From a virus (lineage: Duplodnaviria; Caudoviricetes): DNA of 63,009 nt. Numbering within the stretch: the first letter of the stretch is position 1; every line of letters starts with the position of its first letter. Under the pieces are notes generated by a model. The model ran no database searches and was not told where the DNA came from. It worked only from the letters and a program-made list of their open reading frames with translations. The stretch is from positions 1-63,009 of IMG/VR virus record IMGVR_UViG_3300042514_001623, one strand, 5' to 3'. The position numbers and the translations under genes were made by a program. Shown piece after piece: positions 28,450-53,002 of this stretch.

Positions 28450-29766
28450 CTATGCAGCGCGCCCCTTCGTGCCCTTGGGCTCCCCGGCCGCACTGGTTCG
28501 AGTCCAATCGCGCCTACCAACATCCGGCCCCGTCTTCTCCTCGGAAGACGGGGTTTTTTGTTGCCCGGACGCCAGGGCCTGGGGAGATTCCAGGGGGATT
28601 TCCTGCCCGGTCATGGCCGCCGCCAGGCGCTGCCGTTCGCTGCCGCCGTCGTTTTCGGGAATCCAGCGCGCGTAGGTGTCCAGCAGCATCTTGACGCTGT
28701 GCCCGGCCTGCGCCGCGATGTACCCGGGCTTGATGCCCCGCATCAGCGCCACCGTGCAGTAGGTGTGCCGGGTGCAGTACGGCCGGCGCCGGCGCACGCC
28801 CAGCAGCTTCAGCGTGGGAACCCAGTAGTGCTCGCGCTGGCTGCGTTCATCGTGCCAGGGCCTGCCCGTCACCGGGTTCTCGAAGATGTCCACCTCGCGG
28901 CCCTCGGTGTCGCGCTTCATGGCGGTGTAGGGCTTCATGGCCTTCAGCGCGTCCAGGGCCGGCGGCACGAGATCCACGTCGCGCACGGTGTGCGTCTTCG
29001 ATCCCTCGCGCTCGGAACCCATGAACGTGCGCACGCGCTGCACCCGGGCCGTGGCCGCGTTCCAGTCGATGTCTTCCCAGCGCAGGGCGATGATCTCCTC
29101 GGGCCGCATGCCGGTGAAGAACGCAAAGGCGAAGTAGGCCCACACGCGGATGTCGTAGCGCTTGCGCATGCTGGACAGGATGGCGTCGCGCTCCGCGATG
29201 GTCAGCGGGTCGGGCAGCTTCTTGACCACGCGGCGGTTCGTGATGTCGGCCAGCGGGTTCTCCAGCGCCTTCGGGCCGCGGAACTCCATGGCGAAGACCC
29301 CCCGCAGCGGGATCATGTAGTTGTTGAACAACCGCGCCGAGGACCACGGGTAGCTGCCGATCTTCACGCTCAGCACCTTGTGGGTCAGTTCGGCCAGCGG
29401 CTTGTCGGCGCCCAGCACCTGCTTCCACACCTTCAGGGCGTTGCGGTACTGCGCGCGGGTGGCCGGTGCGAGCTCGCCCTGGGCCTTCAGCCAGTCGTCG
29501 GCCAGCGCGCCGAAGGTCAGCGCAGCGGCGGGCGCGGCGGCGGCGCGCGGCGAGTCGGGGAAGAACTCGGCCAGGTCGAACGTGCCGGCCGCGATGCGCG
29601 CCCGGATGGCCGCGATGACGCGGTGGGCGTGCTTGATGTTGGGCCCCGTGGGCAACATCGGCACGCCGTTGGTGGTGAGGGTTTCGCGCATGCTCACGCC
29701 GGCGACGGTGAACGCCAGCCGGATGCTCTTGGCGCGGATCTCTACGCCGCTGCCGCCACGGCCCAT
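28450..29766 (-). CDS. int: Tyrosine integrase with N-terminal arm-binding domain
   Basis: TGMRPEE, K(T), YCTRHTY, AGHS..M....Y catalytic pattern. Confidence 0.93.
   Translation of the reverse strand: MGRGGSGVEIRAKSIRLAFTVAGVSMRETLTTNGVPMLPTGPNIKHAHRVIAAIRARIAAGTFDLAEFFPDSPRAAAAPAAALTFGALADDWLKAQGELAPATRAQYRNALKVWKQVLGADKPLAELTHKVLSVKIGSYPWSSARLFNNYMIPLRGVFAMEFRGPKALENPLADITNRRVVKKLPDPLTIAERDAILSSMRKRYDIRVWAYFAFAFFTGMRPEEIIALRWEDIDWNAATARVQRVRTFMGSEREGSKTHTVRDVDLVPPALDALKAMKPYTAMKRDTEGREVDIFENPVTGRPWHDERSQREHYWVPTLKLLGVRRRRPYCTRHTYCTVALMRGIKPGYIAAQAGHSVKMLLDTYARWIPENDGGSERQRLAAAMTGQEIPLESPQALASGQQKTPSSEEKTGPDVGRRDWTRTSAAGEPKGTKGRAA
28494..28519 (+). other. attP core: 3' end (T-arm, acceptor strand, CCA) of a tRNA, probably tRNA-Val(GAC)
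   Basis: TGGTTCGAGTCCAATCGCGCCTACCA; no tRNA 5' half upstream; adjacent to and inside int. Confidence 0.8.
28528..28559 (+). terminator. Intrinsic terminator after the attP tRNA fragment
   Basis: CCCCGTCTTC-N6-GAAGACGGGG-T6. Confidence 0.8.
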
Positions 29767-34295: not shown

Positions 34296-35207
34296 TCACG
34301 GCACAGGCTCCATCACGTAGCGGGCCTGGGCCAGCACCGCGCGTTCCAGCTTCCGCGGCGAGCCTTCGCCAAGTTCCTTGAGGAAATCAGCCCAGTCGCT
34401 GCCTTCAATGCCCGTGGGGTAGGCCACACCGCAGCCGATCAACTCGGCCGCGTTGCGCGCCTTGTCCAGGCCGGGGTTGAAGCCGCGGCGGGCCAGCGTG
34501 GCGTGGTCGTTGTCGGCGCCGATCACCACGCTGCCCGACAGCTTCAAGCGCCCCACCACCGGCAGCAGGTTGCCGGCGTCAAAGGCCACCACCACGCGCG
34601 CCTGGCGCATGCTCTGAAACACCGCAAGGCCGGTGGCCAAGCCCTCGCACACCACGGTGACGGCCGGGCGCTGGCGATCCAGCACCAGGCACCCCGCCTT
34701 GACAGGCGCACCCGGCCAGAAACGCTTGGCGCCGTCTGCGGTGATGGTCTGCACGCTGATGAGCCATTCACCCAGCCACACAGGCACCACCAGCAGCCCG
34801 TCGTGCGTGCGCAGGCTCGCGCAGCCCAGCGGGCTCAGGCCCTTGTCGGCGATGTACTTGTGCGGCCGGTTCAGCGGGCGCGCAGCAGCCCAGAACGTGC
34901 GGGCGCTGCGCATGGCCTGCAGTCGGTGCGCGCGCTCGCGCTCGCGCTGCTGGCGTGTCTGCTCGGCCATGCGCGCCACAGCAGCCGCATCGACCTTCGC
35001 GTGTTCGTCCTTCCAGTGGCCCAGCGCCTCGCCGCCGCCGCTGCCCCAATCACCCCAGGAGCCATGGCCATCCGGGTGCAGCACAAACCAGCCGTTGCGC
35101 TTGCCTGGCTTGCTTTCGGTCGGGCAGCGGCGGATGACGCCATCGGCCTTGATGTCGCTGCTGCGCGGGCGCAGGCCAGCGAAGCGGAGTGCCTGCTCAA
35201 AGCTCAT
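34296..35207 (-). CDS. TOPRIM-domain DNA primase (303 aa)
   Basis: CEGLATG, VAFDAGNL, ADND, DWAD; coupled to helicase. Confidence 0.88.
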   Translation of the reverse strand: MSFEQALRFAGLRPRSSDIKADGVIRRCPTESKPGKRNGWFVLHPDGHGSWGDWGSGGGEALGHWKDEHAKVDAAAVARMAEQTRQQRERERAHRLQAMRSARTFWAAARPLNRPHKYIADKGLSPLGCASLRTHDGLLVVPVWLGEWLISVQTITADGAKRFWPGAPVKAGCLVLDRQRPAVTVVCEGLATGLAVFQSMRQARVVVAFDAGNLLPVVGRLKLSGSVVIGADNDHATLARRGFNPGLDKARNAAELIGCGVAYPTGIEGSDWADFLKELGEGSPRKLERAVLAQARYVMEPVP

Positions 35208-36703
35208 GCCGGCACCGCCTCGCGCTGCGCGGCCTTCTGGCGGCCCTTGGCCCAGCGGATCTGGTTCGCCCGGATGCGATTGCGGACCTCGGCCGTGCAC
35301 GGCTCGGGCGTCGTCGTCTCGACGCGCGCCTTGGCGAACGTGCCAGTAAGCTCGTGGTACATGGCCTGCGCCTTGCGCTGCGCGCGCTCCATGTCCTGCG
35401 TGCCTTCCAGCACGTAAGACACGATCTGCGGCCACAGCTTCTTGCGCAGCAGGCCCTGGTCGCCGTGAGCGATGAGTTCCTTCAGCGTGCCAGGCACATG
35501 CTGCACCGCGGCCTTCTTCGGGTACTCGTGGCCGCAGTTCGGGCAGAACGGCATCGGCCGGTGCAGGTGGCCGCAGCTTCCGCACTTGACCGGCTCGGCC
35601 TCAACCTTCTTCTCGGCCTTCTTCTTGTCCTTGGGCTTGCCGTCGTCCAGTTCGGCTAAGCCGTTGTCGAAGAACTCTTCGGTGTCAGCCCAAAACCGGG
35701 CCATGTTCCCTGAGTGGCACAGCACCAGGCAGTCCGTCTTGTTGTCCGCGATGCGAAGGCCGCGGCCCAGCAGCTGGATGTGCTCGGCCAAGCTCTTGCG
35801 CAGGGGCCGGGCCATGATGATGCAGCCCACGTCAGGCACGTCGAACCCACGCGAGGCAGCAGTGACAGTGATGAGGCCGCGAATGCTGCTGTCAGGCTTT
35901 CGGAACTCCAGCGTGACATCCGCGCGGTCTTCGTCCTTGTCCTTGTAGGTGTAGCTGGCCACGTTGATGCCCGCGGCCAGAAACTGGCGCTGCAGTTCCT
36001 CAACGTGCGTGGTGTCTACCGCGCTGCAAATGAACTTGCGGCTCTCGCCGTGCTTCAGGTACTCGGCCACCACGTCGCCCACCACTTCCAGCGCCTTCTT
36101 GCTGGCCTGGGTGTCGTCCCACTCGCCGGTGGACTTCACCGCGACGCCACTCATGTCGGGCTCGACGCACGAGAAAACGCGGTACGGGGAAAGCCACTTC
36201 TGGTCTATCAGTTCGCGCGTGGTCGTCACGTTGATGACGACATCGAACCACTTGCCCAGGCCCTTGGTAAAAGGCGTGGCGGTCAAGCCGATCACCACCG
36301 ACTCGTCTTGCTGCAGGCGGGCCTTGTGGCATGCGTGCAGAACGTGCGCCTCATCGAACACGTCCACTTGCGTTTCTGGCCAGCGGCGGCGGGCCAGCGT
36401 CTGCACGCTGCACAACTGCAGCGGCATCGACGGGCGGAACCGGACGTGGCCGCCCTGGATGACGCCGTGGTCAAGCCCGTAGCGGTCGAAGGTGTCGCTG
36501 GTCTGCTGGATCAGGGAGAGCCGGTCCACCACGAACGCGGCGCGGTTCCCCTTCTCCTTCACCATCTCCATGAGGGCCGACGCCAGCACGGTCTTGCCGC
36601 CGCCGGTGGGGGCCACGATGAGGATGCGCTTATGGCCCTGACGCACTGCATCGCGCGCAAGGTCGAACGCGCGCGCCTGGTAATCGCGGAGAGAGACTTT
36701 CAT
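35204..36703 (-). CDS. SF2 DEAH helicase with C-terminal Zn ribbon
   Basis: LRDYQ, PTGGGKT, DEAH, TAT, GFDVP, Q..GRGLR, CxxC/CxxC. Confidence 0.93.
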   Translation of the reverse strand: MKVSLRDYQARAFDLARDAVRQGHKRILIVAPTGGGKTVLASALMEMVKEKGNRAAFVVDRLSLIQQTSDTFDRYGLDHGVIQGGHVRFRPSMPLQLCSVQTLARRRWPETQVDVFDEAHVLHACHKARLQQDESVVIGLTATPFTKGLGKWFDVVINVTTTRELIDQKWLSPYRVFSCVEPDMSGVAVKSTGEWDDTQASKKALEVVGDVVAEYLKHGESRKFICSAVDTTHVEELQRQFLAAGINVASYTYKDKDEDRADVTLEFRKPDSSIRGLITVTAASRGFDVPDVGCIIMARPLRKSLAEHIQLLGRGLRIADNKTDCLVLCHSGNMARFWADTEEFFDNGLAELDDGKPKDKKKAEKKVEAEPVKCGSCGHLHRPMPFCPNCGHEYPKKAAVQHVPGTLKELIAHGDQGLLRKKLWPQIVSYVLEGTQDMERAQRKAQAMYHELTGTFAKARVETTTPEPCTAEVRNRIRANQIRWAKGRQKAAQREAVPA

Positions 36704-41167: not shown

Positions 41168-42028
41168 GTGAACGCTGTCACCGAGATTAAACACGAGGCC
41201 AGCGCGCTGAGCGCTGCGCCAGAAGCCCCCGCCACCCGCGCGCTGAGCGTGATCGAGCACGCCGTGCGCAGCGGCGCCACGCCCGACCAATTGGAGCGCC
41301 TGCTGGACCTGCAGGTGCGCGCCGACAACCACCAACTCGAACTGATGCGCGAGCGGCGCCGCATGGACGAGGAAGACCGCAAAGCCGCCGCGCTGCTGGC
41401 CTTCCGCCGCGACTTCGCCGCCTTCCGTGGCGAGAACATCATCATCCCCAAGAACGGCTTTGCAGACCGCGCCAAGGCGGGCAGTTTCAACTTCGCCCGG
41501 TTCGGCGACGTGATGCAGATGTTGTCCCCCGCGCTGTCCAAGCACGGGTTCAGCATCCGCCACAACGAGGTGTTCGGGTCCAAGCCCTGGGTGACCGATG
41601 GCGTGGAAAGCACGGTGCCGTGGGTCTACGTCACCTGCTACCTCGAACACCGCGACGGACACAGCGAGCGCCTGGACCTTGAAGGCCCGCCGGGTGATGC
41701 AACGGCGAATACGCCGGCGCAGAACATGCAACTCACGGGCAGCTACCTGAAGCGTCAGGCCACGCTGGCCATCACCGGCACGGCCACGGCCGACGAGGAC
41801 GACGAGAACAAGCTGAAGGGCGAAGGCAAGGCCGGCGCCCAGCAGCCGGACGCTGATGCGCTGGAGGCCCTGCTGGCCACCGGCCGCGATGAGTCCCTGA
41901 AGGGCATGGCCGCGCTGACCGCGTGGTGGGGCTCGCTGAACGCCCGGCAACGCGCCGACCTGAGCCCCGACTTCCCCGGCCTGCGCAAGGCCGCCCAGGC
42001 CGCCGATCAGCAGGGGGGTGCCAAGTGA
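41168..42028 (+). CDS. ERF-family ssDNA annealing protein
   Basis: P.LSKHG, V...L.H..GHSE, Q.....SY.KR.....ITG.A..DEDD. Confidence 0.85.
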   Translation: MNAVTEIKHEASALSAAPEAPATRALSVIEHAVRSGATPDQLERLLDLQVRADNHQLELMRERRRMDEEDRKAAALLAFRRDFAAFRGENIIIPKNGFADRAKAGSFNFARFGDVMQMLSPALSKHGFSIRHNEVFGSKPWVTDGVESTVPWVYVTCYLEHRDGHSERLDLEGPPGDATANTPAQNMQLTGSYLKRQATLAITGTATADEDDENKLKGEGKAGAQQPDADALEALLATGRDESLKGMAALTAWWGSLNARQRADLSPDFPGLRKAAQAADQQGGAK

Positions 42029-43330: not shown

Positions 43331-44146
43331 ATGTTCACCAAAGACGCCATCGAGAAACTGTCCGAAGCCGAAGCCATCAGCGCAGCCAACAGGGAGGTGA
43401 CGGCTTCAAACGTCGTTGCCCTGCCGAGCGACTTCGAGTTGCGCGACCTGGAGGCCAAGGCCCCGCACCGCCGCCGCGCCCGCGGCACGATGACCACCAG
43501 CACGGTGGCCGACTTCGCGGGCTACACCGAAACCCACGCCGAAGACGGCGCTACCGTGTTCGTGAACCAAGACGACATGAGCGCCACGGCTGTGCTGAAC
43601 CTGGGCACGCCGCTGGAGCCCGGCCATGCCGACAACCGCGCGAAGCTGCAGCCCAAGAAGACCGCCGCCTACATCGCGCTGCAGGCAGTGGCGAACGGCC
43701 GCGCCATCACCCAGCAGGCCGTGGCTGAGTTCATGGAGGACTGGCCCGGTGAACTGGAGTTCTTCAACGCGCAGTCCGACAAGTTGACCCCGAGCCAAGC
43801 CATCACGGCAGTGCGCAGGATCACCATTGAAGGCCTGAACCGCGTGGAGAGCGCCACGCAGCAGTTGAGCGCCGAGCGCAGCACCTTCGAGCGCATCGAG
43901 GCCAAGGGCACGGACCTGATTCCGACCACGATCTACTTCCGCTGCTGCCCCTACGTGGACTTCGCATCGCGCCTGTTCGTGCTGCGCCTGGGCATCGTCA
44001 CTGGCGCCAAAGACCCGGCCATCACGTTGCGCGTGCAGAACGCGGAGAAGCACGCCGAGGAGATGGCCGCCGAGCTCGCCAGCCTGGTGCGCGGTGCGGT
44101 GAAGGACACGCCGGTGCTGCTGGGCAGCTACAGCCCGAGCGCATGA
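43331..44146 (+). CDS. DUF2303/YfdQ-family protein
   Basis: LE...P.R.R.RG, A.AVLNLGT...PGHADN.A, Q...AEF.EDW. Confidence 0.82.
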   Translation: MFTKDAIEKLSEAEAISAANREVTASNVVALPSDFELRDLEAKAPHRRRARGTMTTSTVADFAGYTETHAEDGATVFVNQDDMSATAVLNLGTPLEPGHADNRAKLQPKKTAAYIALQAVANGRAITQQAVAEFMEDWPGELEFFNAQSDKLTPSQAITAVRRITIEGLNRVESATQQLSAERSTFERIEAKGTDLIPTTIYFRCCPYVDFASRLFVLRLGIVTGAKDPAITLRVQNAEKHAEEMAAELASLVRGAVKDTPVLLGSYSPSA

Positions 44147-44346
44147 GCGACGCGATTGAGGGCTTCCGGGCCCTTGACGACCACCGCAAGGCACTGCGCG
44201 CCAAGTACGGCGTGAACTGCCCGCAGTGCGCCGTGAAGCGGCCCCGGGCCCACCCCTCAATCCTTCTGCCGCAGCAGCGGTGCCGTGTGGACGGCTACCG
44301 CGACCCGCGGCCGGAGCTCACGAACGAACAGTGGAGCAGCACATGA
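44143..44346 (+). CDS. Small Cys-containing hypothetical protein
   Basis: YGV.CP.C...RP...P.ILLPQQRC.V.GY.DPRP. Confidence 0.7.
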   Translation: MSDAIEGFRALDDHRKALRAKYGVNCPQCAVKRPRAHPSILLPQQRCRVDGYRDPRPELTNEQWSST

Positions 44347-44870
44347 AGATGGCAAAGGCCAGCGAGGCCGACATGCAGATGGCATCAGAGCTTGCCAACG
44401 CGCTTGAAGCACTGAGCAGCCGCTGGGGCGCGACGATGCCGGAAAAGATCGACAGGGCCGCGCCTGACGCCAATGAAGCCTTTTCCGTCGATGACCCTGA
44501 CCACTGCCGCCGGGTGTGCGAATACCTCATCGCGCTGACGCGCAGCGCCTCCCTGTGCCGCGTGGTGTGGGGCATGGACGTGCTGCTGGACCCGCGCAAC
44601 AAGATCGTGGACCCCGACGCTGACACCCTGGAGCACCACCCGGAAACGGTTGCCTGCAGGGCTGCCACCCTGCCAAAGCCGCTGGCCGACTGGGACGAAG
44701 ACAAGGGCGCCGTGCTGTGGTGGAGGTTCCCGGTCGAGGAACCACCGTACTGCGGGCACCCCAACTGCGACGACTGGCCCGGCTATCACACGCACTGGAC
44801 GCCGCTGATCGTGCCTGACGCGCCGGCCGCCGCCAAAACAACCCAGATCACCGAGGACACCCATGCTTGA
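44343..44870 (+). CDS. Hypothetical protein
   Basis: C-terminal W.ED.G.VLWW.FP.EEPPY.G.P...WPGYHTHWT phage motif. Confidence 0.7.
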   Translation: MKMAKASEADMQMASELANALEALSSRWGATMPEKIDRAAPDANEAFSVDDPDHCRRVCEYLIALTRSASLCRVVWGMDVLLDPRNKIVDPDADTLEHHPETVACRAATLPKPLADWDEDKGAVLWWRFPVEEPPYCGHPNCDDWPGYHTHWTPLIVPDAPAAAKTTQITEDTHA

Positions 44871-46113
44871 CTTCCCCAACATCGAAGCCCCGGCCGCCGC
44901 GCCGGCCCCGCGCACCGAGGTTGCCACCGCCGCAGCCCAGGCCCTGGACCTTGCCAAGATCGACCTGGCCGCCGTGGTGCGCCAGCAGTTCGGCGACTGG
45001 CGCGCGGCCACGGCCCAGCTGAAGGCCGACAACGCCAAGACCGTGCTGGACCTGACCACGCAGAGCCGGGTGGACGAAGCCCGGTCCCTGCGCGAGCGCA
45101 CGATCAACAAGCCCATCGCCGAAGCCCGCAAGACCTGCAAGGCGCTGAAATCGACCCTGGCCAGCGCAAGCAAGGTGGCCGGCGACGAGGTGGACGCCCT
45201 GGTGCTGGCCTACGAGGAAGCCGCGGCGCCCATCACCAAGCAGATTGACGAGGCGCAGGCCCGGTTCGACGCTGCCAAGGCCGAGAAAGAGCGCCTGGAG
45301 CGCGAGGCCCAGGAGCGCCACGCCGCGCGCCTGCAGGTGATCGCCGGCTACCTGCTGCGCTGCCAAGAGGTGGGCATGACGGCTGAGCGCATCGCCCTCG
45401 GCATCAAGACCTTGGCCGACAGCGACGTGAGCGACACCGACGCCGCCCGAGCCGAAGCGCTGGCCGGCGCCAAGGCACGCGCGCTGGAGCAGATGGGCAC
45501 GCTGCACGCCCAGGCCGTGGCCCGGGAAGCCGAGGCAGCGCGGCAGGAGGCCATCCGCGTGGAGAACGAGCGCCGGGCCGCCGAGCTTGCCGAGCAGGAG
45601 CGCCGCATTGCCGCCGAAGCCGCCGCCATCCGCAAGGCCGCCGAGGAACTGGCCGCGCGTGAGGCCGCGGCACGGGCTGCGGAGGCCGCTGCCAAGCAAG
45701 CCGAGAACGACCGGCTGGCCGCCTTGGACCTGAAGCGCGCCGCCGAGCTTCAAGCGGAGTTCGAGGCCAGCTGCGCAGCCGCCACGGCGCGCGAGAAGGC
45801 CGCCCAAGAGCGCTACATCGAAGACCGCCAAGCCGACCCGATCCGCGCCGACGACCCCGACGCTGCCCCGCACACCACGGCAGCCGAGATGGGCGGCGAC
45901 CGCGCCGACCCGGGCGAGGCCGTGGGGCTGGCCGAGGTGAACCCGGAGCCGGCAACTGTCAAGGAATCCTTGACAGCTGAGCCCACGCCCGCCGACACCC
46001 TGCGCGCCCTGGCCGCCGAAGCCCGCGCGAGCCGCGTCCCCACGAACCCCAAGATGGGCCCGGAGTGGTGGGCCCGCTGGTTCGCCGCCGTCGATGCGCT
46101 GGAGGTGGCGTGA
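44863..46113 (+). CDS. Long coiled-coil hypothetical protein (416 aa)
   Basis: GAGGA RBS; Ala/Glu/Arg-rich. Confidence 0.75.
   Translation: MLDFPNIEAPAAAPAPRTEVATAAAQALDLAKIDLAAVVRQQFGDWRAATAQLKADNAKTVLDLTTQSRVDEARSLRERTINKPIAEARKTCKALKSTLASASKVAGDEVDALVLAYEEAAAPITKQIDEAQARFDAAKAEKERLEREAQERHAARLQVIAGYLLRCQEVGMTAERIALGIKTLADSDVSDTDAARAEALAGAKARALEQMGTLHAQAVAREAEAARQEAIRVENERRAAELAEQERRIAAEAAAIRKAAEELAAREAAARAAEAAAKQAENDRLAALDLKRAAELQAEFEASCAAATAREKAAQERYIEDRQADPIRADDPDAAPHTTAAEMGGDRADPGEAVGLAEVNPEPATVKESLTAEPTPADTLRALAAEARASRVPTNPKMGPEWWARWFAAVDALEVA
45956..45976. repeat. Perfect 10-bp palindrome inside CDS
   Basis: CTGTCAAGGA-A-TCCTTGACAG. Confidence 0.8.
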
Positions 46114-46550
46114 TGGGCCTGCGCTGCACCAAATGCGGCCGGCGCGGGCACGTCATGGAGCGCTGCACCGTTGACCTGCAAGCCGCCGCCCGCGAAGCTT
46201 GCGCGGCCATCCTGCGGGTCGCGCGTCAGTACCCGCAGGGGATTGAGCGCCGCACGCTGCTGGACGAGGCCGGCATCAAGCATGACCGGGGATTCAAGAT
46301 TCTCATAGCCCTGCGCAAATCGGGCGAGGTGGTCAAGCGGCAGACCGTAGACCGGCAGACGCTGTTCACCGCAGCCGAGCACGAAGCCGAGATGCTGGCC
46401 CATGTGGAGGCAGCAGCGAAGACCGCAGCAAACAAGGCCCCCGGCCGCCAGTGGCCCGAGGGCAACACATGGACCCCGCCAGCGCCGCGAATCCCCAGCG
46501 TGTGGCACCTGGCGCAGATGGCCGCCAACGAAGATCGGAGGGCTGCATGA
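46113..46550 (+). CDS. Hypothetical protein with Zn-knuckle (CxxCxxxGHxxxxC)
   Basis: CTKCGRRGHVMERC; GGAGG RBS. Confidence 0.65.
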   Translation: MGLRCTKCGRRGHVMERCTVDLQAAAREACAAILRVARQYPQGIERRTLLDEAGIKHDRGFKILIALRKSGEVVKRQTVDRQTLFTAAEHEAEMLAHVEAAAKTAANKAPGRQWPEGNTWTPPAPRIPSVWHLAQMAANEDRRAA

Positions 46551-46861
46551 GCATCAAAGCACTGCGCGAGGCGCTGGCTGCGCCCGACAACTGGTTTGCG
46601 CGCGCGACATGGACACCGGCCGACTTTGACGATGCAGGCTACAGCGCTGCGCCGCGCGCCTACATCGCCGCAGCCTGCACCGCCGCCCCGGCTCTGCTGG
46701 CACGGTGCGATGAGCTGGCGGAGGCCGCACGGCAGGCGCTGGAGGCGCTTGAAGACGCACGCCACCACATGAGCGCATCGGGCGCATTCACTGAGATTCA
46801 ACTGGCCGCGCAAGACGCACTGCGCGTCGCCCTCAACAGCACACAGGAGAGCGCCAAGTGA
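46547..46861 (+). CDS. Hypothetical protein
   Basis: GGAGG RBS, ATGA overlap; YIAAA....P.LL motif. Confidence 0.65.
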   Translation: MSIKALREALAAPDNWFARATWTPADFDDAGYSAAPRAYIAAACTAAPALLARCDELAEAARQALEALEDARHHMSASGAFTEIQLAAQDALRVALNSTQESAK

Positions 46862-47058
46862 GCACACCACGCGACGACCGCCCCGCATACATGGCCGCCA
46901 TGCTGAGCGGCAACCACGTTCAGGCGCTGGCGATCGAGCGCCGCCACGGCTTGGACGGTTACCCGCCCGACCTGGTGAGCGTGGGCCTCAAGGCTGCTGC
47001 TGAAGGCCGCGATGCGCTGGAAGCCGTCGAAGCCCACATTGAGGAGAGCGCATCATGA
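46858..47058 (+). CDS. Hypothetical protein
   Basis: AGGAG RBS, GTGA overlap. Confidence 0.65.
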   Translation: MSTPRDDRPAYMAAMLSGNHVQALAIERRHGLDGYPPDLVSVGLKAAAEGRDALEAVEAHIEESAS

Positions 47059-47804
47059 GCACCAAGACCGAGGCCGGGCCGGTGGCGCCGGTTTGCTATT
47101 GCCCTCCTGAGCTGCTGCTGAAGCTAGACGACGAGGATTATCGCGCTGGATGGATGGCGCGCGTGAAAAGCGCGCCGAATGCCGTGTTCAGCGTCCCCCT
47201 CTACGCCCACCCGCCCGCACAAGAGCATCCCAACCTAGCGTGCAAGTCAGTGCAAAAGCGCCTTGCTACGCAGTGGGGCTACGTGCCCGCACAAGAGCAG
47301 CCGGCGCCCGGTGGAATGCCGAACGGCTACGAGGCCATGACTACCTGCTACAAGCGGTACGTCTCGCCTGCGCAGTACGCCGCCTTCTCGCCCGGGGTGC
47401 AGAAGTGGTATCGGCCTTTCTGGACTGCCACCCACCCCACGCCAGCCGAGCGCGCAGAGCAGCCACAAGCCGAGCAGGAACTGCGCGAGCTGCTGGCTGT
47501 GCGTGTGGCCGGTGCGCTGCTGTACGCCGACGATGGCGAATTGCAGGACGCCAGCGAACTGCCGGCCATCGACTTCAAGCGGGACGCCCCGGGCGAGATT
47601 GCTCGCAAGCTGACAGACCGGGGCCTGAAGCGCCTGACGCGCGCAGAGCAGCCCCCGCGCGATGCCGTGCAGCAGGGGCTGACGGATGAGCAGATTGATG
47701 CACTGTGGCGCCAGGCCGCATCCGCAGACGGATTCACTACGGCGCAGTTCGTGCGCGAGTTCGCCCGCGCCATCGAGCGCGCCACCCTGAAAGGCCAGCC
47801 ATGA
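47055..47804 (+). CDS. Mosaic hypothetical protein (249 aa)
   Basis: PLYAHP, LYADDGELQD, LTDEQI...FARAIE phage modules. Confidence 0.7.
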   Translation: MSTKTEAGPVAPVCYCPPELLLKLDDEDYRAGWMARVKSAPNAVFSVPLYAHPPAQEHPNLACKSVQKRLATQWGYVPAQEQPAPGGMPNGYEAMTTCYKRYVSPAQYAAFSPGVQKWYRPFWTATHPTPAERAEQPQAEQELRELLAVRVAGALLYADDGELQDASELPAIDFKRDAPGEIARKLTDRGLKRLTRAEQPPRDAVQQGLTDEQIDALWRQAASADGFTTAQFVREFARAIERATLKGQP

Positions 47805-48103
47805 GCGGCGGGGACAGTGCGGGTCGGGGGGTGTTGAGCGAGGGGCTAGGCCTGGCTCCGGAGCGCCTGAGCGAAGACCGCGCACGCACGCTTATTGAGG
47901 CATGGCTGGACGAGCACGCCCAAGGATACCCGGACTACTCGCTGTGCGAAGACGGCGACGATGCCTGGGCCTTCTGGATCGCCGAGAAGGACACCACCAG
48001 TTACCTGCATTCCGATGGCCGCGTGGAGTGGTACGGCACCGGGTGGCCGGAGATCTACCAGTACGACGGCGACTCCGGCCTGTGGTCGTCGGCAAGGGCC
48101 TAA
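47801..48103 (+). CDS. Cassette A ORF, hypothetical (100 aa)
   Basis: Reads across a degenerate R' (GCTAGGC 47845); stop in GCCTAAC. Confidence 0.65.
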   Translation: MSGGDSAGRGVLSEGLGLAPERLSEDRARTLIEAWLDEHAQGYPDYSLCEDGDDAWAFWIAEKDTTSYLHSDGRVEWYGTGWPEIYQYDGDSGLWSSARA

Positions 48104-48116
48104 CGGACAGTTAGGC
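48098..48116 (+). repeat. Collapsed mini-attC (R''-5 nt-R')
   Basis: GCCTAAC-GGACA-GTTAGGC. Confidence 0.65.
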
Positions 48117-48137
48117 ATCACTGCAACGAGGAACACG

Positions 48138-48338
48138 ATGAAGAAACTACAACTTACCCCGTGGTTCAAGGCGGCGACACAGAAGCCAGTCCGTCGCGGC
48201 TGGTACGACTTCTATGACGGACTTTGGGGCCAGCATGTGCGCGCCATGTGGAACGGCACCTACTGGGTTTGGCAGGAAGGCACCCGCATCGACCCATACC
48301 CGTGCGACAAGTGGCGCGGGGTTTCGGGTGATGCCTAA
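48138..48338 (+). CDS. Cassette B ORF, Trp-rich hypothetical (66 aa)
   Basis: GAGGA RBS; LTPWF...KPVR.G.Y...W.G..W...WRG; stop in GCCTAAC. Confidence 0.7.
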   Translation: MKKLQLTPWFKAATQKPVRRGWYDFYDGLWGQHVRAMWNGTYWVWQEGTRIDPYPCDKWRGVSGDA

Positions 48339-48441
48339 CGCGCGAGCTAACCGGCCCGCAGAGGGCCAGAGGAGTGACAGGTGAGCACAGACGATACGAG
48401 CCCCGCTACTGCGGGTCCGGTGGTTCAGCGCGGTGTTAGGC
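48333..48441 (+). repeat. attC-like site (109 bp)
   Basis: GCCTAAC...CCGGCCCGCAG / CTGCGGGTCCGG...GTTAGGC with bulged bases. Confidence 0.8.
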
Positions 48442-48743
48442 CCTGCGCGTGGTGGCGCGAGAGCATTTACGCGGAATGCTGGCCGTGCGTGACCGTAGAC
48501 GAAAAGGAGGCCGAGTTCTGGCGCTCCGAAGGGCTGACGGTTGTTGAGCTGGGTGACGTGGCCGCAGAACGCGCAGAGTCGGCGCGGCTTCGCCACCTCC
48601 TGAATCTGGCGCGCGACGACTACAACACTGCGGCGCAGCGGCTGCAAGACATTGGCGACTACGCGCACGACCACAGCACCGGCCCAGCAGTGCCGGATGC
48701 GCTGTGGGAAGTGTGCTCAATGGCCTACGGTTCAGGGGCCTAA
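48381..48743 (+). CDS. Cassette C ORF, hypothetical (120 aa), starting inside the upstream attC
   Basis: GAGGAG RBS and GTG in the attC loop; stop in GCCTAAC. Confidence 0.7.
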   Translation: MSTDDTSPATAGPVVQRGVRPCAWWRESIYAECWPCVTVDEKEAEFWRSEGLTVVELGDVAAERAESARLRHLLNLARDDYNTAAQRLQDIGDYAHDHSTGPAVPDALWEVCSMAYGSGA

Positions 48744-48860
48744 CGTTCGAGTTCACCCGGACTCCAACAGCGCGAGGATCACAAATTGAATGAGAAAGCC
48801 ACAAATTCCGATGAGAGCCGGCCCGCTGTTGGTGGTCCGGGGTGCAACGAGGGGTTAGGC
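48738..48860 (+). repeat. attC-like site (123 bp)
   Basis: GCCTAAC...CCCGGACTCCAACAGCG / CGCTGTTGGTGGTCCGGG...GTTAGGC. Confidence 0.8.
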
Positions 48861-49178
48861 CCGCTGCCAACCATCCGGCCCGGTGAAACAGACGCGGAGT
48901 TTGTGGCGCAGATTGAGGCCACGCACTGCCGGCCGCTGACGCCACCGGAGCGGATGCCGCAATACATCCGCGACGAGTTGCCTGATGAACTGGCAGCCCA
49001 TCGTTTGCAGGCGTGGGCAGATGCGCGCGTGGCCGCAGAGCGCGCGAGATTCCTGCGCCTCATTGCGCGGCACTGCGAAGACGCCTGCGTGGCCGCCGTA
49101 CTCGAAGACTCAGTGCGCCTCGGGTTGGATGTGGGGCCTAACGTCGGAAATCAGGCGGACCCGGAGGCGAAGCCGTAG
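48786..49178 (+). CDS. Cassette D ORF, hypothetical (130 aa), starting in one attC and ending in the next
   Basis: GAGGA RBS and TTG in the attC loop; reads through GCCTAAC at 49136. Confidence 0.6.
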   Translation: MNEKATNSDESRPAVGGPGCNEGLGPLPTIRPGETDAEFVAQIEATHCRPLTPPERMPQYIRDELPDELAAHRLQAWADARVAAERARFLRLIARHCEDACVAAVLEDSVRLGLDVGPNVGNQADPEAKP

Positions 49179-49205
49179 GGGCTCGCCTGCATTGACCAGT
49201 TAGGC
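49136..49205 (+). repeat. attC-like site (70 bp)
   Basis: GCCTAAC...CAGGCG..CCC...GGC-GAA-GCC...GGG..CGCCTG...GTTAGGC. Confidence 0.8.
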
Positions 49206-49233
49206 CACGGCTCCGAAGCGAAAGGACAAAAGC

Positions 49234-49515
49234 ATGCAAGCGTTGAGCGACCTGATAACTGCGGCAGTGCAACTGGCCGGCGCAGATGACACCGTGAGCC
49301 ACGGCGCGCGGCTGTGGCACAGCGAAGGCGGCCGGCGCTGCCCGCTTGGCTGGGAGGACTGCTCGCAGGCGGTGTACATGGACCTGAAGACCGGCGAGTA
49401 CGACTATGGCGATCCTGGCGGCCCTGGGCATGCGGACTGCGAACGCAACTGCGCTCACGGCATGTTGCCTGCGCCGGAAGACGAGAACGAAGGCCCGTAT
49501 GCCTTGGTGGCCTAA
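49234..49515 (+). CDS. Cassette E ORF, Cys/His-rich hypothetical (93 aa)
   Basis: AAGGA RBS; W.S.GGR.CP....CSQ.VY......YDYG..GGP...C; stop in GCCTAAC. Confidence 0.72.
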   Translation: MQALSDLITAAVQLAGADDTVSHGARLWHSEGGRRCPLGWEDCSQAVYMDLKTGEYDYGDPGGPGHADCERNCAHGMLPAPEDENEGPYALVA

Positions 49516-49614
49516 CGTTGGAGCTGAACGGGCACCAACGGCAGGCACAGATTAACCCGGAGCGCGCCACGGCAACCCTGCCGTTGGGGCTCCGATTCGA
49601 GCGACGAGTTAGGC
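49510..49614 (+). repeat. attC-like site (105 bp)
   Basis: GCCTAAC...CCAACGGCAGG / CCTGCCGTTGG...GTTAGGC. Confidence 0.8.
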
Positions 49615-49640
49615 CACGCTGTGGCCGGAGCGAGAAAACG

Positions 49641-49871
49641 ATGGCAAAGCGATTCACCAAGGCGGCACTTGTCGAACAACTGCGCGACCTTGCGGACAAC
49701 GTGCAGCAGACCCGCCACTTTGACGGCGGCAACGGCACCGCGCAGCTTCGCCCGCGCGGATGCGATGAAGCCACCCAAGCGCTGATTGATAAGGCTGTGG
49801 ACTATGGCCGCTGGCGCACGCTCCACAACTTGGCCGCGGACGTGGAGTGCGGGTGTATTGGCGTGGCCTAA
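49641..49871 (+). CDS. Cassette F ORF, hypothetical (76 aa)
   Basis: GGAG RBS; stop in GCCTAAC (49866-72). Confidence 0.68.
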   Translation: MAKRFTKAALVEQLRDLADNVQQTRHFDGGNGTAQLRPRGCDEATQALIDKAVDYGRWRTLHNLAADVECGCIGVA

Positions 49872-49880
49872 CCCGTAGAT

Positions 49881-50246
49881 ATGCCACCTTTCCAAAGTCC
49901 GCGCAGGCCCGCGAGCCGCTGGGCCGCATACAACGCAACGCCAGGCGCGCACAAGCGCCGGAGCGCCGCGCGTGAGGCCGCCAGCATTGCCGGCCCGGCC
50001 CCGGCATACCCGCCGCTGGCCCCGTTGCATGGGGATTGGCTGGGCGGGTCCATAAACGGCAAGACCGTCATCATGCGGCTGATGCGAGATCCGCAGCACC
50101 GTTCTGACCAGTGGGCGGGCGAGATCGACGGCGAGGCGGTGACGGACGCCGCCGGCCTGACGCGGCTGTGGGAACTGCTGAGCAAGCGCTGGCCCAAGGC
50201 GCCGAGCCGGCGCACGCTGGCTGGGTTGGGAAAGCGCGAAGGGTGA
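49881..50246 (+). CDS. Hypothetical protein (121 aa)
   Basis: ORF after the last R'' box. Confidence 0.5.
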   Translation: MPPFQSPRRPASRWAAYNATPGAHKRRSAAREAASIAGPAPAYPPLAPLHGDWLGGSINGKTVIMRLMRDPQHRSDQWAGEIDGEAVTDAAGLTRLWELLSKRWPKAPSRRTLAGLGKREG

Positions 50247-50400
50247 CACCCTCCCCAAGTTGGGTGCAGAATCCCTCCAGCCCGCGCAAGGGCGCCACGT
50301 CATCGGGCCTTCCAGGCCCCACGCTTCCCGGCTGTGCCGGGTGACTGCTGCTAGACAGCACAGACTGGTAGGGCGAACTCGCCCCTAAATTTCCACCATC

Positions 50401-50438
50401 AGCCCGCCCCGGGAAACCGCGGCGGGCTTTGTCGTTCT
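50401..50438 (+). terminator. Terminator-like hairpin before the late module
   Basis: AGCCCGCC...GGCGGGCTTTGTCGTTCT; same flanks as the 60886 hairpin. Confidence 0.55.
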
Positions 50439-50448
50439 GGAAGCGCTT

Positions 50449-50888
50449 ATGACCCCTGCCATCGTGCGCGGCGCCTTCCGCTACGGTGACAGCCGCCCCT
50501 TCGCTCGCCTAGTTACGCTGCTGCGCGGCGGCGACTCGGCGCACTGCGAAGCCGCGTGGCAGTGGGAAGGCTCGCTGCATCGGTGCGTGTCGGCCTCGGG
50601 CTGGACGGCGGCGTGCGCGCCAAGGACATCGAGATGCCGGCCGACAGGTGGCGCATCTACGAGGTGCCTGCGCGCGCAATGCCGCAAGCCTGGGGGCTGC
50701 TGCGGGCGTCGCACGGCTACGACGTGCTGGGCCTGCTGGGCATCCTCTGGCCGATCCTGGGGCATCGCACGCGCCGCTGGTTTTGCAGCGAGGCCGTCGC
50801 CGACATGCTCGGCCTGCCCGAACCTCAACTGTTCGACCTGCGAACCCTCGAATCCGTGTGCGCCTTGATTGGGCGTCGCGTGCAGTAA
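50449..50888 (+). pseudogene. Frameshifted permuted papain-like (NlpC/P60, YiiX-like) protein
   Basis: Frame 1 carries SAHCE...CVSAS; after ~50599 another frame carries LDGGVR.K...YD..G...WFCSE; one-base loss. Confidence 0.7.
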
Positions 50889-50914
50889 CACAACAGCCGT
50901 TTTAGGAGCCACAC

Positions 50915-51391
50915 ATGGCCGCTTTCGTTTTCAACATCGCCCTGGGCCGCGTTGCCGAGCTCTACCGCCGCGTCAAGGGCAACGACCCCGCCAACAGCGC
51001 CCTGGTGCTGGTGGCCATCAACAACGGCGGCACCACCGACGCCACCATGCAGGACTACACCACGCTGTCGGCCTTGCTGGCCGATGCTGGCGTGGCCGAG
51101 GTCACCAACAGCGGCTACAGCCGCAAGGTGCTCACCGACGCCGAGCTGGCATCGGTGCCCGCGCCCGACAGCACGAACAACCGCATCGAGCTGAGTCTGC
51201 CGGCGCAGACCTGGGCCACCATCGGTGCGGGCACGGCCTGGACTGACCTGGTGGTCTGCTACGACCCTGACACCACGACGGGCACCGACGCCGACCTGAT
51301 CCCGCTGACGCTGAGTGACTTCGTGAAGACCCCAGACGGTGGCGACATCCCGATGGCGGCCGGCGTGTTCTTCCGGGGCAGCGCGGCCTGA
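50915..51391 (+). CDS. Probable virion structural protein (158 aa)
   Basis: AGGAG RBS; FVFNIA.GR..E...NDP, E.T..GY.RK.L motif of minor virion proteins. Confidence 0.7.
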   Translation: MAAFVFNIALGRVAELYRRVKGNDPANSALVLVAINNGGTTDATMQDYTTLSALLADAGVAEVTNSGYSRKVLTDAELASVPAPDSTNNRIELSLPAQTWATIGAGTAWTDLVVCYDPDTTTGTDADLIPLTLSDFVKTPDGGDIPMAAGVFFRGSAA

Positions 51392-51403
51392 CGGGTCTGA
51401 GCC

Positions 51404-53002
51404 GTGGCTGTCTCAATCGTTGACGGCACGGCCGCCGCTGCCTGGCTGGCCGCAACCACTCAGCGCGCACAGCTCGAAGCCCTGGCGGCGCCGTGGGGCG
51501 GGTCTGCGGTGACGGCGCGCTTCTTCAGCGCTGGCGGCGACTTGCTGCGCACGCAGACCCTGCCGGCCCTGAGCATCGACACGGTGGCGGCTCCGTACCG
51601 TTTCAACCTCGGCCGCTACGTGGCAGACACCCATGTGGCCGAGGGCACGGCTGCGCGCCTGGATCTTCGCGCGGGCTCTACAGACATCGTGCGGCTGGAC
51701 TGCGGCCTGACGGGCTCGGGCGCCAGCGTAGAGCTTGCAGGGCCGCTGAAAGAGCTTTGCCCGCCCGACCTGGCCGGCGTGGAGTTGCTGGCGGATAGCG
51801 CGCTGCCTGCCGGGCCGCCGAACACGCTGCTGCTGACCGACGACGGGATGATGGCGAATGGCACTTTGCCCCTCGGCTCTCTTGAGTTGGACGGGGCGGT
51901 GTTCGTCGGCCACAACTCGCAAGACGGCCCGCGCGTGGCAAAGCATGTGCTTGCCACCGGCGTGACCACGGTCAGCGACTCGCTGCGCACGGCCATCGGC
52001 AATTCAGACCACTCAGCGCCGTGCGTCGTTGCGCGAAGCGATGGCAGGCTGACGGCCTTCTACTCGCGCCACAACATCGAAAACACCGCGTATCAGCGCA
52101 CCACCGTCAACCCCGGCGACGTGTCGTCTTGGGGCACCGAGGTCAATCTGAACGATGGCGGCGCCATCACCTATCCGAGCGTGATCGTGTGCGGCTCTCG
52201 GTGGCTGCTCACCTTCCGCGTGGACAACTCGTGGCGCTACCGCGTCAGCACTGACGAGGGCGCCACCTGGGGGCCGGGCATCACTGCGGCCACCTACTCG
52301 GGCGACGGCTCGGGCTCGCGGCCTTACCTGCTGCCTGTGTGGAATGCGGCGCAGAGCCGGGTTGACTTCGCCGTCATCGCCCAGGGTGCTGACCGCTTCC
52401 TTGTGCCCTACCTCTGGCACGTCTACGCGACTTTCGACGGCAGCAACGCGCTGACCTTCTTCAAGACCGATGGCACTTCGCTGGGCGCCGCCTTCGATGC
52501 TGCAAACGCCACCGAGATTTACAACGGCGCGCCTGATGGCGTGGACATCGCGTTCCAAATCGTCACGATCAACCCGAGCACCGGCGCGGTCTGGATCATG
52601 GCGCGTCGCATCAACAGCACCACCAGCAGCGACATGCTGCTGTATCGGCAGAACGGCACCGGCTGGCTGGGCCCTTCCACCATCTACAACGCGGGCTATC
52701 CCACAAGCCCAACGCGCACCGACTACGTGCCGGGGGCGGTCTTCCACCCGACCGACCCGACCCGCGTCTTCGGCATCCGGTCAACCGGCTACAGCGGCCC
52801 GAGCCGCTTGGCCGAGTACGCCACCACCGATGGCGGCGCCACATGGGCTTTCGTGCGCGAGATGACTCCGTGGAGCGAAGACAACGTGGAGCTGCTGCGG
52901 CCCCACGCGATTCAGAACGGCACCAAATATCTGGTGGCCTGGGCCAGCGGTCGCTTCACGGAGCTGACCGATTGGGACACATCAATTCTCATGGGAGCCT
53001 GA
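51404..53002 (+). CDS. Virion-associated protein with BNR/Asp-box beta-propeller (sialidase/lyase-like)
   Basis: STDEGATW and TTDGGATW Asp-boxes; DH.AP, YSRHN, TYP motifs. Confidence 0.7.
   Translation: MAVSIVDGTAAAAWLAATTQRAQLEALAAPWGGSAVTARFFSAGGDLLRTQTLPALSIDTVAAPYRFNLGRYVADTHVAEGTAARLDLRAGSTDIVRLDCGLTGSGASVELAGPLKELCPPDLAGVELLADSALPAGPPNTLLLTDDGMMANGTLPLGSLELDGAVFVGHNSQDGPRVAKHVLATGVTTVSDSLRTAIGNSDHSAPCVVARSDGRLTAFYSRHNIENTAYQRTTVNPGDVSSWGTEVNLNDGGAITYPSVIVCGSRWLLTFRVDNSWRYRVSTDEGATWGPGITAATYSGDGSGSRPYLLPVWNAAQSRVDFAVIAQGADRFLVPYLWHVYATFDGSNALTFFKTDGTSLGAAFDAANATEIYNGAPDGVDIAFQIVTINPSTGAVWIMARRINSTTSSDMLLYRQNGTGWLGPSTIYNAGYPTSPTRTDYVPGAVFHPTDPTRVFGIRSTGYSGPSRLAEYATTDGGATWAFVREMTPWSEDNVELLRPHAIQNGTKYLVAWASGRFTELTDWDTSILMGA

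Follow-up and report, generated by a model that had tools for sequence, protein, structure and literature searches.

The virus record IMGVR_UViG_3300042514_001623 (Duplodnaviria; Caudoviricetes), complete at 63,009 bp with direct terminal repeats and called the window below, carries six small plus-strand genes (A to F) at 47.8-49.9 kb that are spaced by the inverted pairs GCCTAAC...GTTAGGC of attC-type elements (E1 to E5). The locus raises the question of where the translation of such genes begins. A preliminary description placed Shine-Dalgarno (SD) sequences and start codons, GAGGAG with GTG (48381) for gene C and GAGGA with TTG (48786) for gene D, inside attC loops and proposed that the upstream cassette donates ribosome-binding site (RBS), start codon and leader to the downstream one. 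We found these coordinates to be right, the two signals lying in the hairpins E2 and E3 (Table 1), and both frames read the right arm into the cassette and stay open up to their stop codons. Sequence comparison established the anatomy of the array, its recurrence, its frame statistics, its polarity and the existence of natural recombinants. From these we conclude that a long attC hairpin probably supplies the gene that follows it with an RBS, a start codon and its first ~20 codons, and that hairpin and gene body behave as swappable modules; translation very probably begins in the loop.

The heptamer of the inverted pairs occurs 11 times in the window, always within 48098-49872, where 2.99 copies are expected, and none of 100 shuffled sequences reached 11. 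The copies form five perfect GCCTAAC/GTTAGGC pairs and one orphan box, and the elements end in the inverted 7-bp core boxes (RYYYAAC...GTTRRRY) by which attC sites are recognized. An attC site is an imperfect palindrome of about 50-150 nt that forms a hairpin with the boxes at its base; as DNA, E2, E3 and E4 adopt such long imperfect hairpins on both strands (z-scores -2.5 to -4.2), and the minimum-energy DNA fold of E5 is not closed on its boxes. As RNA, E2 and E3 fold likewise, with the starts in the weakly paired top; the unpaired probability in E2 is 0.66 in the initiation region versus 0.12 in the arms. On the plus strand the E2 loop reads GAGGAG (48369-48374), a 6-nt spacer and the GTG, and the E3 loop GAGGA (48774-48778), a 7-nt spacer and the TTG. 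Gene C (MSTDDTSPATAGPVVQRGVRP...) takes its leader, residues 1-21, from the E2 loop and right arm, and its body starts at residue 22. In gene D (MNEKATNSDESRPAVGGPGCNEGLGP...) the leader comprises residues 1-26 and the body is a mosaic. Units of hairpin, leader, body and TAA measure 235-405 bp in the window, and all upstream genes but D terminate at the TAA of the left box that follows. The earlier observation that gene D reads through the next box is borne out: it crosses GCCTAAC (49136-49142) out of phase with the TAA and stops 13 codons later inside E4. A relative of D on the viral contig L008 (4090-4120; window 49120-49178) has one more base immediately ahead of the left box and terminates at this TAA, so it is the shorter length of gene D that makes it miss the box TAA and run into E4.

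Related viral contigs have this architecture far more often than chance would give. Among the IMG/VR contigs, 64 viral stretches had the right-arm motif and 113 the left-arm motif, and the viral loci contained 170 unique elements, 114 of them long (at least 80 nt) and 56 short. A loop SD and start codon with a frame open for 40 codons or more beyond the right box was present in 75 of the 114 long elements compared with 3 of the 56 short ones. These 75 starts were 67 ATG, 6 GTG and 2 TTG, with 37 in frame 0 and 38 in frame 1, the two frames left open by the box. In the long hairpin variants (~90-126 nt) the apical loop holds the SD, 5-8 nt and the start codon, and the descending arm and right box encode hydrophilic leaders of 17-27 residues, rich in A, D, N, T, P and E, which are fused in frame to the body. 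The start is located at 0.43 ± 0.09 of the element length, and in 34 of 36 RNA folds the initiation region had less pairing than the arms. The codon-position G+C content of the leaders (0.67/0.49/0.67) is coding-like but weak. The short variants (50-75 nt) have no loop start, and the next gene there has its own SD and ATG ~3-36 nt past the box.

Frames in G+C-rich DNA can stay open without being translated, as the long antisense open reading frames (ORFs) across the region illustrate, and the leaders could be over-extensions of genes whose true starts lie downstream of the right box, the loop starts being unused. To address this we used a strict test in which the frame of the body was fixed independently by the G+C content at third codon positions (GC3) further downstream. 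Only 49 of the 114 long elements passed, and the filter demands a frame that is open from the box and favours fused cases. Loop ATGs preceded by an SD were in the frame of the body in 32 of 40 cases (binomial p = 1.8e-9 versus one third), whereas SD-preceded GTG (6/18) and TTG (4/12) codons had no in-frame excess, and the opposite strand of the same elements had no SD with ATG in its loops. A smaller first-pass frame test agreed with the strict one. We also looked for initiation signals downstream: of 36 bodies that follow a loop start, 2 had an SD with a start codon within 60 nt past the box, compared with 24 of 29 bodies that follow start-less elements (Fisher 7.5e-11). Bodies behind loop starts lack recognizable initiation signals of their own, contrary to what over-extension predicts.

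The two genes in question speak to the same point. Gene C has no in-frame ATG, GTG or TTG between the box and 48489, and these 16 start-less codons are conserved in a relative, P0017, which keeps the stretch right after the box, CAWWRESIY..CWPC (RAWWRLSIYEGCYPC vs CAWWRESIYAECWPC), behind a different leader. A search of viral contigs for related loci returned no relatives of gene C, and a protein search returned many; relatives other than P0017 combine the C-terminal module of C with other VERxVRP-type leaders. We consider it very likely, on this comparative evidence, that translation of gene C starts in the loop. An AlphaFold2 model of gene C has a predicted local distance difference test score (pLDDT) below 50 over most of residues 1-28 (segments 6-8 and 11-28) and its first helix at 23-30; it is a low-confidence model (mean pLDDT 66.7) that we used for leader disorder only. 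The C-terminal module itself (48650-48740; IGDYAHDHSTGPAVPDALWE(V/I)R.MAY) recurs at 79-98% identity in dozens of otherwise unrelated proteins of 68-195 aa and matched no Pfam family.

For gene D the evidence is more mixed. Its body is found behind several leaders: the leader of the window is present in P0067, a second one (MKEETQVPAADAGRGLSEGLGP) precedes the body in P0065, and on a lake-water contig (run X17) the leader region of gene A is joined in frame to the D body. P0065 and P0067 both conserve LPTIxPGETDAEF upstream of an internal GTG at 48903, an observation that speaks against over-extension. The internal codon has a plausible context of its own (GGAG, 3 nt, GTG) and is a possible second start. 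Taken together, a start in the loop is reasonably likely for gene D, a weaker statement than for gene C.

Several observations weigh against starts in the loops. The gene call of the record itself (P0066) and a further protein, P0068, begin D at GTG 48903, and P0069 has its own Met eight residues before this codon. A second contig from run X17 links the end of gene F to the D body via a 21-nt start-less loop with a TAA in the frame of D, which means that D can exist without a loop start. The two focal starts, a GTG and a TTG, are of the rare kinds among the viral elements (6 and 2 of 75). Throughout, the support for the start sites consists of comparative statistics. The choice of GTG 48903 and the D body behind a start-less loop are what over-extension would lead one to expect; the in-frame excess confined to ATG and to one strand, the missing downstream signals, the conserved start-less codons of gene C, the conserved residues upstream of the GTG of D and a frame-restoring additional G in one relative (see below) make over-extension very unlikely as the general explanation.

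Three related elements also count against a uniform rule, since their leader ORF is out of frame and ends 33-60 nt past the box, in two cases near an SD and start codon. These three are cases of coupling of the kind known from ORF-11 of the integron site attI1, not of fusion, and they raise the possibility that loop ORFs in general are short upstream ORFs whose translation melts the hairpin and allows re-initiation at the body's own start. In L254_1997 and L261_13639 the leader ORF indeed stops within ~11 nt of an SD and start codon. E3 contains in addition to the TTG an out-of-frame ATG (48790), which opens a 22-codon ORF ending at a TAG inside the right box (48856-48858), a stop position like the one that the text of PMC8876359 gives for ORF-11. 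This ATG is 11 nt away from the SD compared with 7 nt for the TTG, and the peptide in the TTG frame (MNEKATNSDE...) resembles the ATG-started leaders of relatives. The SD-preceded starts of genes C and D do not open short ORFs of the ORF-11 type but continue for 120 and 130 codons, those of 75 of the 114 long elements read on for at least 40 codons, and no restart signal was present in 34 of 36 cases. We regard coupling as highly improbable for the family as a whole.

We next consider what kind of recombination site these hairpins are. The right-arm motif is present in at least 120 bacterial genome stretches, mostly from Burkholderiales (such as Rubrivivax, Acidovorax and Hydrogenophaga). Of five bacterial genomes with the motif that we tested, four (G001, G002, G004, G005) encode an integron integrase (IntI) above the curated NCBIfam cut-off, and in three of the four an element or array adjoins IntI. 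We derived a covariance model (R1) from 24 attC sites, taken from two integrons whose IntI exceeds the cut-off; it matched the minus strand of E5 (61.1 bits versus 13.6 on the plus strand), E3 (55.5 versus 17.8), E2 (45.3 versus 17.7) and E4 (41.7 versus 11.4), and the next best match in the window scored 19.8 bits. E2 to E5 are thus attC sites of a known bacterial family. No integron integrase accompanies them: the best match to TIGR02249 in the 63-kb record scored 14.6 bits with a cut-off of 265 and belongs to a lambda-type recombinase with Arm-DNA-bind_2 and Phage_integrase domains, and none of five related viral records had an IntI above cut-off. With four model-supported sites within 1.3 kb and no intI in the genome, the array is a cluster of attC sites lacking an integron integrase (CALIN).

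The polarity of this CALIN is reversed. In the bacterial integrons the direction from left arm to right arm, which is the coding direction in the phage, points towards intI, and the bacterial cassette ORFs were on the strand opposite to the phage-type genes in 23 of 23 intervals when the longest ORF per strand was taken, a crude criterion with several small margins. We used it as GC3 gene calling failed in the bacterial arrays, which are lower in G+C. In G004 a cassette is duplicated in tandem, and the identity of the two copies spans exactly the interval between successive left boxes. The phage genes therefore lie on the bottom strand of attC, unlike the cassettes of bacterial integrons, and none of genes A to F has the classical arrangement of a gene on the attC top strand with the attC 3' of it. 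Among 113 elements in viral loci, the coding sense corresponded to the bottom strand in 58, was antisense to it in 11 and was ambiguous in 42, and 2 were open in neither. Given this polarity, the canonical crossover (G/TT of R', the slash marking the cut) would fall in the left box, GCCTAA/C, at the stop codon of the upstream gene. The right-hand GTTAGGC that the leader crosses corresponds, as judged from the model matches, to the complement of R'' and not to the crossover box R'.

These assignments change the ownership of the leader. The preliminary description had put the crossover at the right-hand box, a placement that the minus-strand matches, the orientation of the bacterial ORFs and the left-box duplication in G004 contradict. 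The N-terminus does depend on the preceding hairpin, as had been proposed, and what does not hold is that this hairpin belongs to the upstream cassette; by integron rules, hairpin, leader and body would make one self-contained unit.

Natural junctions bear on whether the units stay together. Comparing element pairs that share a flank with at least 80% identity, we obtained 26 pairs that indicate a left-arm junction and 15 that indicate a right-arm one; the pairs are non-independent events and their mapping is resolved to within the conserved arms. By class, 21 pairs shared the upstream gene but not the loop, 5 shared loop and body but not the upstream gene, 4 shared upstream gene and loop but not the body, and 11 shared the body but not the loop. 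At the left box, L005_5644 and L009_2032 have a common hairpin and body from the box onward and different upstream genes, L251 compared with L278 also fits a unit bounded by the left box, and three contigs with a common upstream gene part ways just past CCTAACGT. At the right arm, L005 and L006 are identical but for one unit, ~370 bp long by our count on the alignment; its junction falls within GGGTTAGGC and provides a single body with two leaders. Common bodies behind different loops were also seen for L005_5311 versus L019_2241 and for L016 versus L054. L234_2986 and L267_618 part inside the loop, with identity beginning at the SD, and a comparison of L019 with L062 resolved no simple junction. 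In L005_5311 a leader of the frame-1 family has one extra G in the arm that brings it in frame with a frame-0 body. Frame-0 and frame-1 elements have one common right-arm consensus, read as (L/V)ERGVRP or LSEGLG depending on the frame; conservation of the arm is thus at the nucleic-acid level, with the leader peptide as a by-product. The Logan contigs, which are short, span the arms at the 31-mer level only. By these comparisons, both arms have been recombination junctions in nature, and leader modules and bodies re-assort. The joining of leaders to varied bodies, foreseen in the preliminary description, is thus seen in the L005/L006 pair, in the D body and in the relatives of gene C. A combinatorial fusion or switch had been suggested as well; the N-terminus varies with the neighbour over evolutionary time, and a regulated switch is not supported.

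Breakpoints are not confined to the arms. One gene of L005 (3800-4110) fuses a stretch of the window gene 47055-47804 (47190-47300) to the mid-body of D (48930-49045), and the two edges of this piece of D, 48930 and 49044, are where lake-water contigs show loose ends. These findings point to mosaic breakpoints inside bodies too.

The right-arm junctions could mean that the right GTTAGGC is after all the crossover box R', that a cassette is a body plus the following hairpin, and that an integrase reorders these cassettes and so switches N-termini and expression. The L005/L006 junction in GGGTTAGGC, the 11 plus 4 right-arm pairs and the contig joining the gene A leader to the D body fit this arrangement, and recombination of the attC top strand, which would cut that box, is reported at lower frequency in the text of PMC9892861. 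It is quite unlikely in view of the reversed polarity (minus-strand matches, opposite ORFs in all 23 intervals, the duplicated cassette bounded by left boxes), the lack of an IntI in the window and of one above cut-off in all five related viral records, and left-arm junctions that are at least as many (26 pairs). The opposite extreme, in which each reverse cassette is strictly self-contained, a single unit that host IntI cuts at the left box, with right-arm junctions as rare accidents without function, draws on the polarity, on the duplicated bacterial cassette and on L005_5644/L009_2032, L251/L278 and the five pairs with the same loop and body behind a different upstream gene. It would have to explain away 15 right-arm junction pairs, a D body with three leaders and loops that part from their bodies inside the loop (L234_2986 versus L267_618), and it presupposes that IntI acts on these sites; we judge it improbable.

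Returning to swappable hairpins and bodies, we propose the following mechanism. No sigma-70-like or terminator-like site coincided with any element within 44000-51500, so the array is probably one transcript. If one message covers the array, each long hairpin would form in the mRNA and display SD and start codon in its open apex. A ribosome would load at the apex and melt the 3' arm while translating the hydrophilic leader fused to the body. The leader would be a tolerated, probably disordered tail, and the two conserved arms would serve as recombination linkers. Short-homology recombination, for which the ERF-family protein of the phage is a candidate agent, could explain both kinds of junctions and is favoured for the right arm, while a host IntI is a possible agent of the left-box junctions.

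A bolder idea, which we put forward tentatively and think rather unlikely to hold as a whole, is that these units are 'reverse cassettes', a phage-adapted class of integron cassettes read from the attC bottom strand, in which the site doubles as a 5' initiation module. If so, the remnant of R' would supply the stop codon and each excised unit would be a complete translation unit without untranslated ends. Host IntI could then shuffle reverse cassettes among co-resident phages, and the inverted polarity would silence phage cassettes in a host integron and host cassettes in a phage; recombination sites would be a shared currency, with the gene pools separated by strand. Host IntI is induced by the SOS response, as are prophages. 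None of 65 viral cassette bodies had a match at E ≤ 1e-8 in the bacterial loci, which extend over no more than 8 kb about each motif hit, a scope too narrow for this negative to say much about exchange with host integrons. With the strict frame filter, 25 of 348 elements in bacterial loci passed, 22 of them long, and 3 had an in-frame loop SD and start.

Parts of this picture have precedents. Phage attC sites can be substrates of IntI1 and CALINs occur in phages (Qi et al. 2023; PMC9892861, main text). The array resembles these phage CALINs, as described there, in having attC sites, small phage genes of the same direction and no intI nearby, and differs in having genes that are encoded by the attC bottom strand and start within the hairpin; the family is also abundant, with 170 unique elements in the viral loci. 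The available text of PMC9892861 contains no occurrence of 'start codon', 'translation' or 'Burkholderia'. The sedentary chromosomal integrons of Burkholderiales (G001, G002, G004, G005) have attC sites of the same family, with identical boxes and arm consensus; their sites are 114-131 nt long, their ORFs are on the other strand and intI is adjacent, and by eye, without a count, we noticed no SD with ATG in 24 aligned attC loops. PMC8876359, relating Hanau-Bercot 2002 and Jacquier 2009, describes how ORF-11 of attI1 and small ORFs in attC sites help the following cassette to be translated, and the latter ORFs are called anecdotal in the text of PMC11511950. They share with the phage elements initiation signals in a recombination site and ribosomes that open a hairpin; as portrayed in PMC8876359, they are short, lie on the top strand, end at a stop codon (such as the TAG of GTTRRRY) and act by re-initiation, whereas in two thirds of the long phage elements the ORF is on the bottom strand and, staying in frame, is the gene itself. 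Cassettes that lack initiation signals, and cassettes that are fused, are likewise known, for example the aacA4 fusions and gcuF1-blaOXA-28 in the account of PMC8876359. There, too, N-terminus and expression depend on upstream sequence, but these are, in that account, sporadic products of attC loss in clinical integrons, whereas here the hairpin is intact and the rule is family-wide. Promoter early stem-loop (PeSL) elements are conserved stem-loop motifs that flank small variable genes of T4-type phages and act as shuffling junctions, according to PMC2839356 and PMC4122927. PeSLs are characterized in those papers as promoter-terminator motifs; the array elements do not combine an early promoter with a terminator stem-loop and instead carry translation signals and integron-type boxes.

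Phage CALINs, translation-aiding attC ORFs and ORF-11, signal-less and fused cassettes and shuffling at PeSLs are therefore known already. Our literature search, which covered texts outside subscription journals and supplementary files, returned no attC-loop initiation region fused to a downstream gene, no bottom-strand coding in phage arrays and no independent assortment of leaders and bodies; these negatives may be affected by the lists of phage CALINs in the supplementary tables of PMC9892861. In the literature searched, an intact attC loop acting as the initiation region of a full-length in-frame gene, the bottom-strand rule and leader-body assortment are undescribed. In the integron literature consulted, attC hairpins are recombination sites with at most a hindering or modestly helpful effect on how the next cassette is translated. 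If our reading is confirmed, gene callers and integron annotators that assume a top-strand ORF followed by attC mis-describe such arrays, and attC sites would be portable translation modules, explaining the spacer-free expression of very small phage genes. Such arrays would also be a testable system for how phages and host chromosomal integrons share recombination sites, with the first question being whether an integrase or short-homology recombination is behind the mosaicism of phage accessory regions.

The remaining parts of the array are as follows (Table 1). The first 17 codons of gene A are leader-like (MSGGDSAGRGVLSEGLGL), as had been pointed out before, are read over a degenerate right arm and resemble the ...ADAGRGLSEGLGP leaders of relatives. 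This remnant arm has no left arm, which indicates a truncated element at the low-coordinate end of the array. E1 is possibly a collapsed attC, with weak attC-model scores of 12.9 bits on one strand and 12.1 on the other. The body of gene E sits behind another short element in L005. E5 contains a leader-like frame (INPERATATLPLGLRFERRVRP) in phase with gene F, with ATT where relatives have ATG and no SD, and gene F starts at its own SD and ATG eight codons past the E5 box; E5 looks like a decayed loop start. The orphan box would be the integrase-proximal start of a canonical cassette array on account of the minus-strand polarity.

Table 1. Coordinates of the array elements, the genes between them and neighbouring phage genes in the 63,009-bp window.
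Feature	Coordinates	Strand	Description
Helicase	35204-36703	-	ResIII/Helicase_C
DUF2303 protein	43331-44146	+	
Gene A	47801-48103	+	100 aa; ATG overlaps the stop codon of the upstream gene 47055-47804 (ATGA)
Remnant right arm	47834-47852	+	Degenerate box GCTAGGC at 47845-47851; compared with the right-arm consensus
E1	48098-48116		19-bp mini-hairpin of two boxes and a 5-nt loop; TAA of gene A in left box
Gene B	48138-48338	+	66 aa; own SD and ATG 22 nt past E1; TAA in E2 left box
E2	48333-48441	-	109-nt attC-type hairpin; canonical attC top strand is the minus strand
Gene C	48381-48743	+	120 aa; TAA 48741-48743 in E3 left box
E3	48738-48860	-	123-nt attC-type hairpin
Gene D	48786-49178	+	130 aa from TTG; TAG 49176-49178; alternative start GTG 48903
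E4	49136-49205	-	70-nt attC-type hairpin; loop without start
Gene E	49234-49515	+	93 aa; own SD and ATG 29 nt past E4; TAA in E5 left box
E5	49510-49614	-	105-nt attC-type hairpin; loop without usable start
Gene F	49641-49871	+	76 aa; own SD and ATG 27 nt past E5; TAA in orphan box
Orphan box	49866-49872	-	Minus strand reads a lone GTTAGGC

The array lies in the accessory-gene region of a lake-water phage that looks temperate. It encodes a P22-type portal and a lambda-type tyrosine integrase (28450-29766, minus strand), the Arm-DNA-bind_2 and Phage_integrase protein mentioned above, as well as the ERF-family annealing protein (41168-42028, plus strand). The phage's own recombination module sits just upstream of the attC array. 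Searched against INPHARED phage records with blastn in distant mode, the array region gave no match; neither genes A to F nor four genes next to them matched a PHROG or, above the curated cut-off, a Pfam family, and 47000-50500 had no Rfam family at E ≤ 1. Of the words sampled from the array (47700-50300), half or more were present in 23 DNA runs with lake-water or freshwater metagenome labels (23 coded studies), and 0.06 in the RNA run X24. Read depth over the right arms exceeded that of the flanks in four lake-water or freshwater runs, as expected for a repeat that is common to many phages.

Two further features of the window were noted. Downstream of the gene at 49881-50246, a G+C-rich inverted repeat (50395-50435, plus strand) is followed by TTTGTCGTT and may be the end of the transcription unit of the array; our terminator scan, which needs five T, does not list it. 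In the structural half of the genome, 11047-24990 (plus strand) is a single ORF of 4647 aa encoding a giant multi-domain protein, with matches to an Eco57I-type methylase (residues ~1793-1880) and an SNF2/ResIII helicase (~2426-2623).

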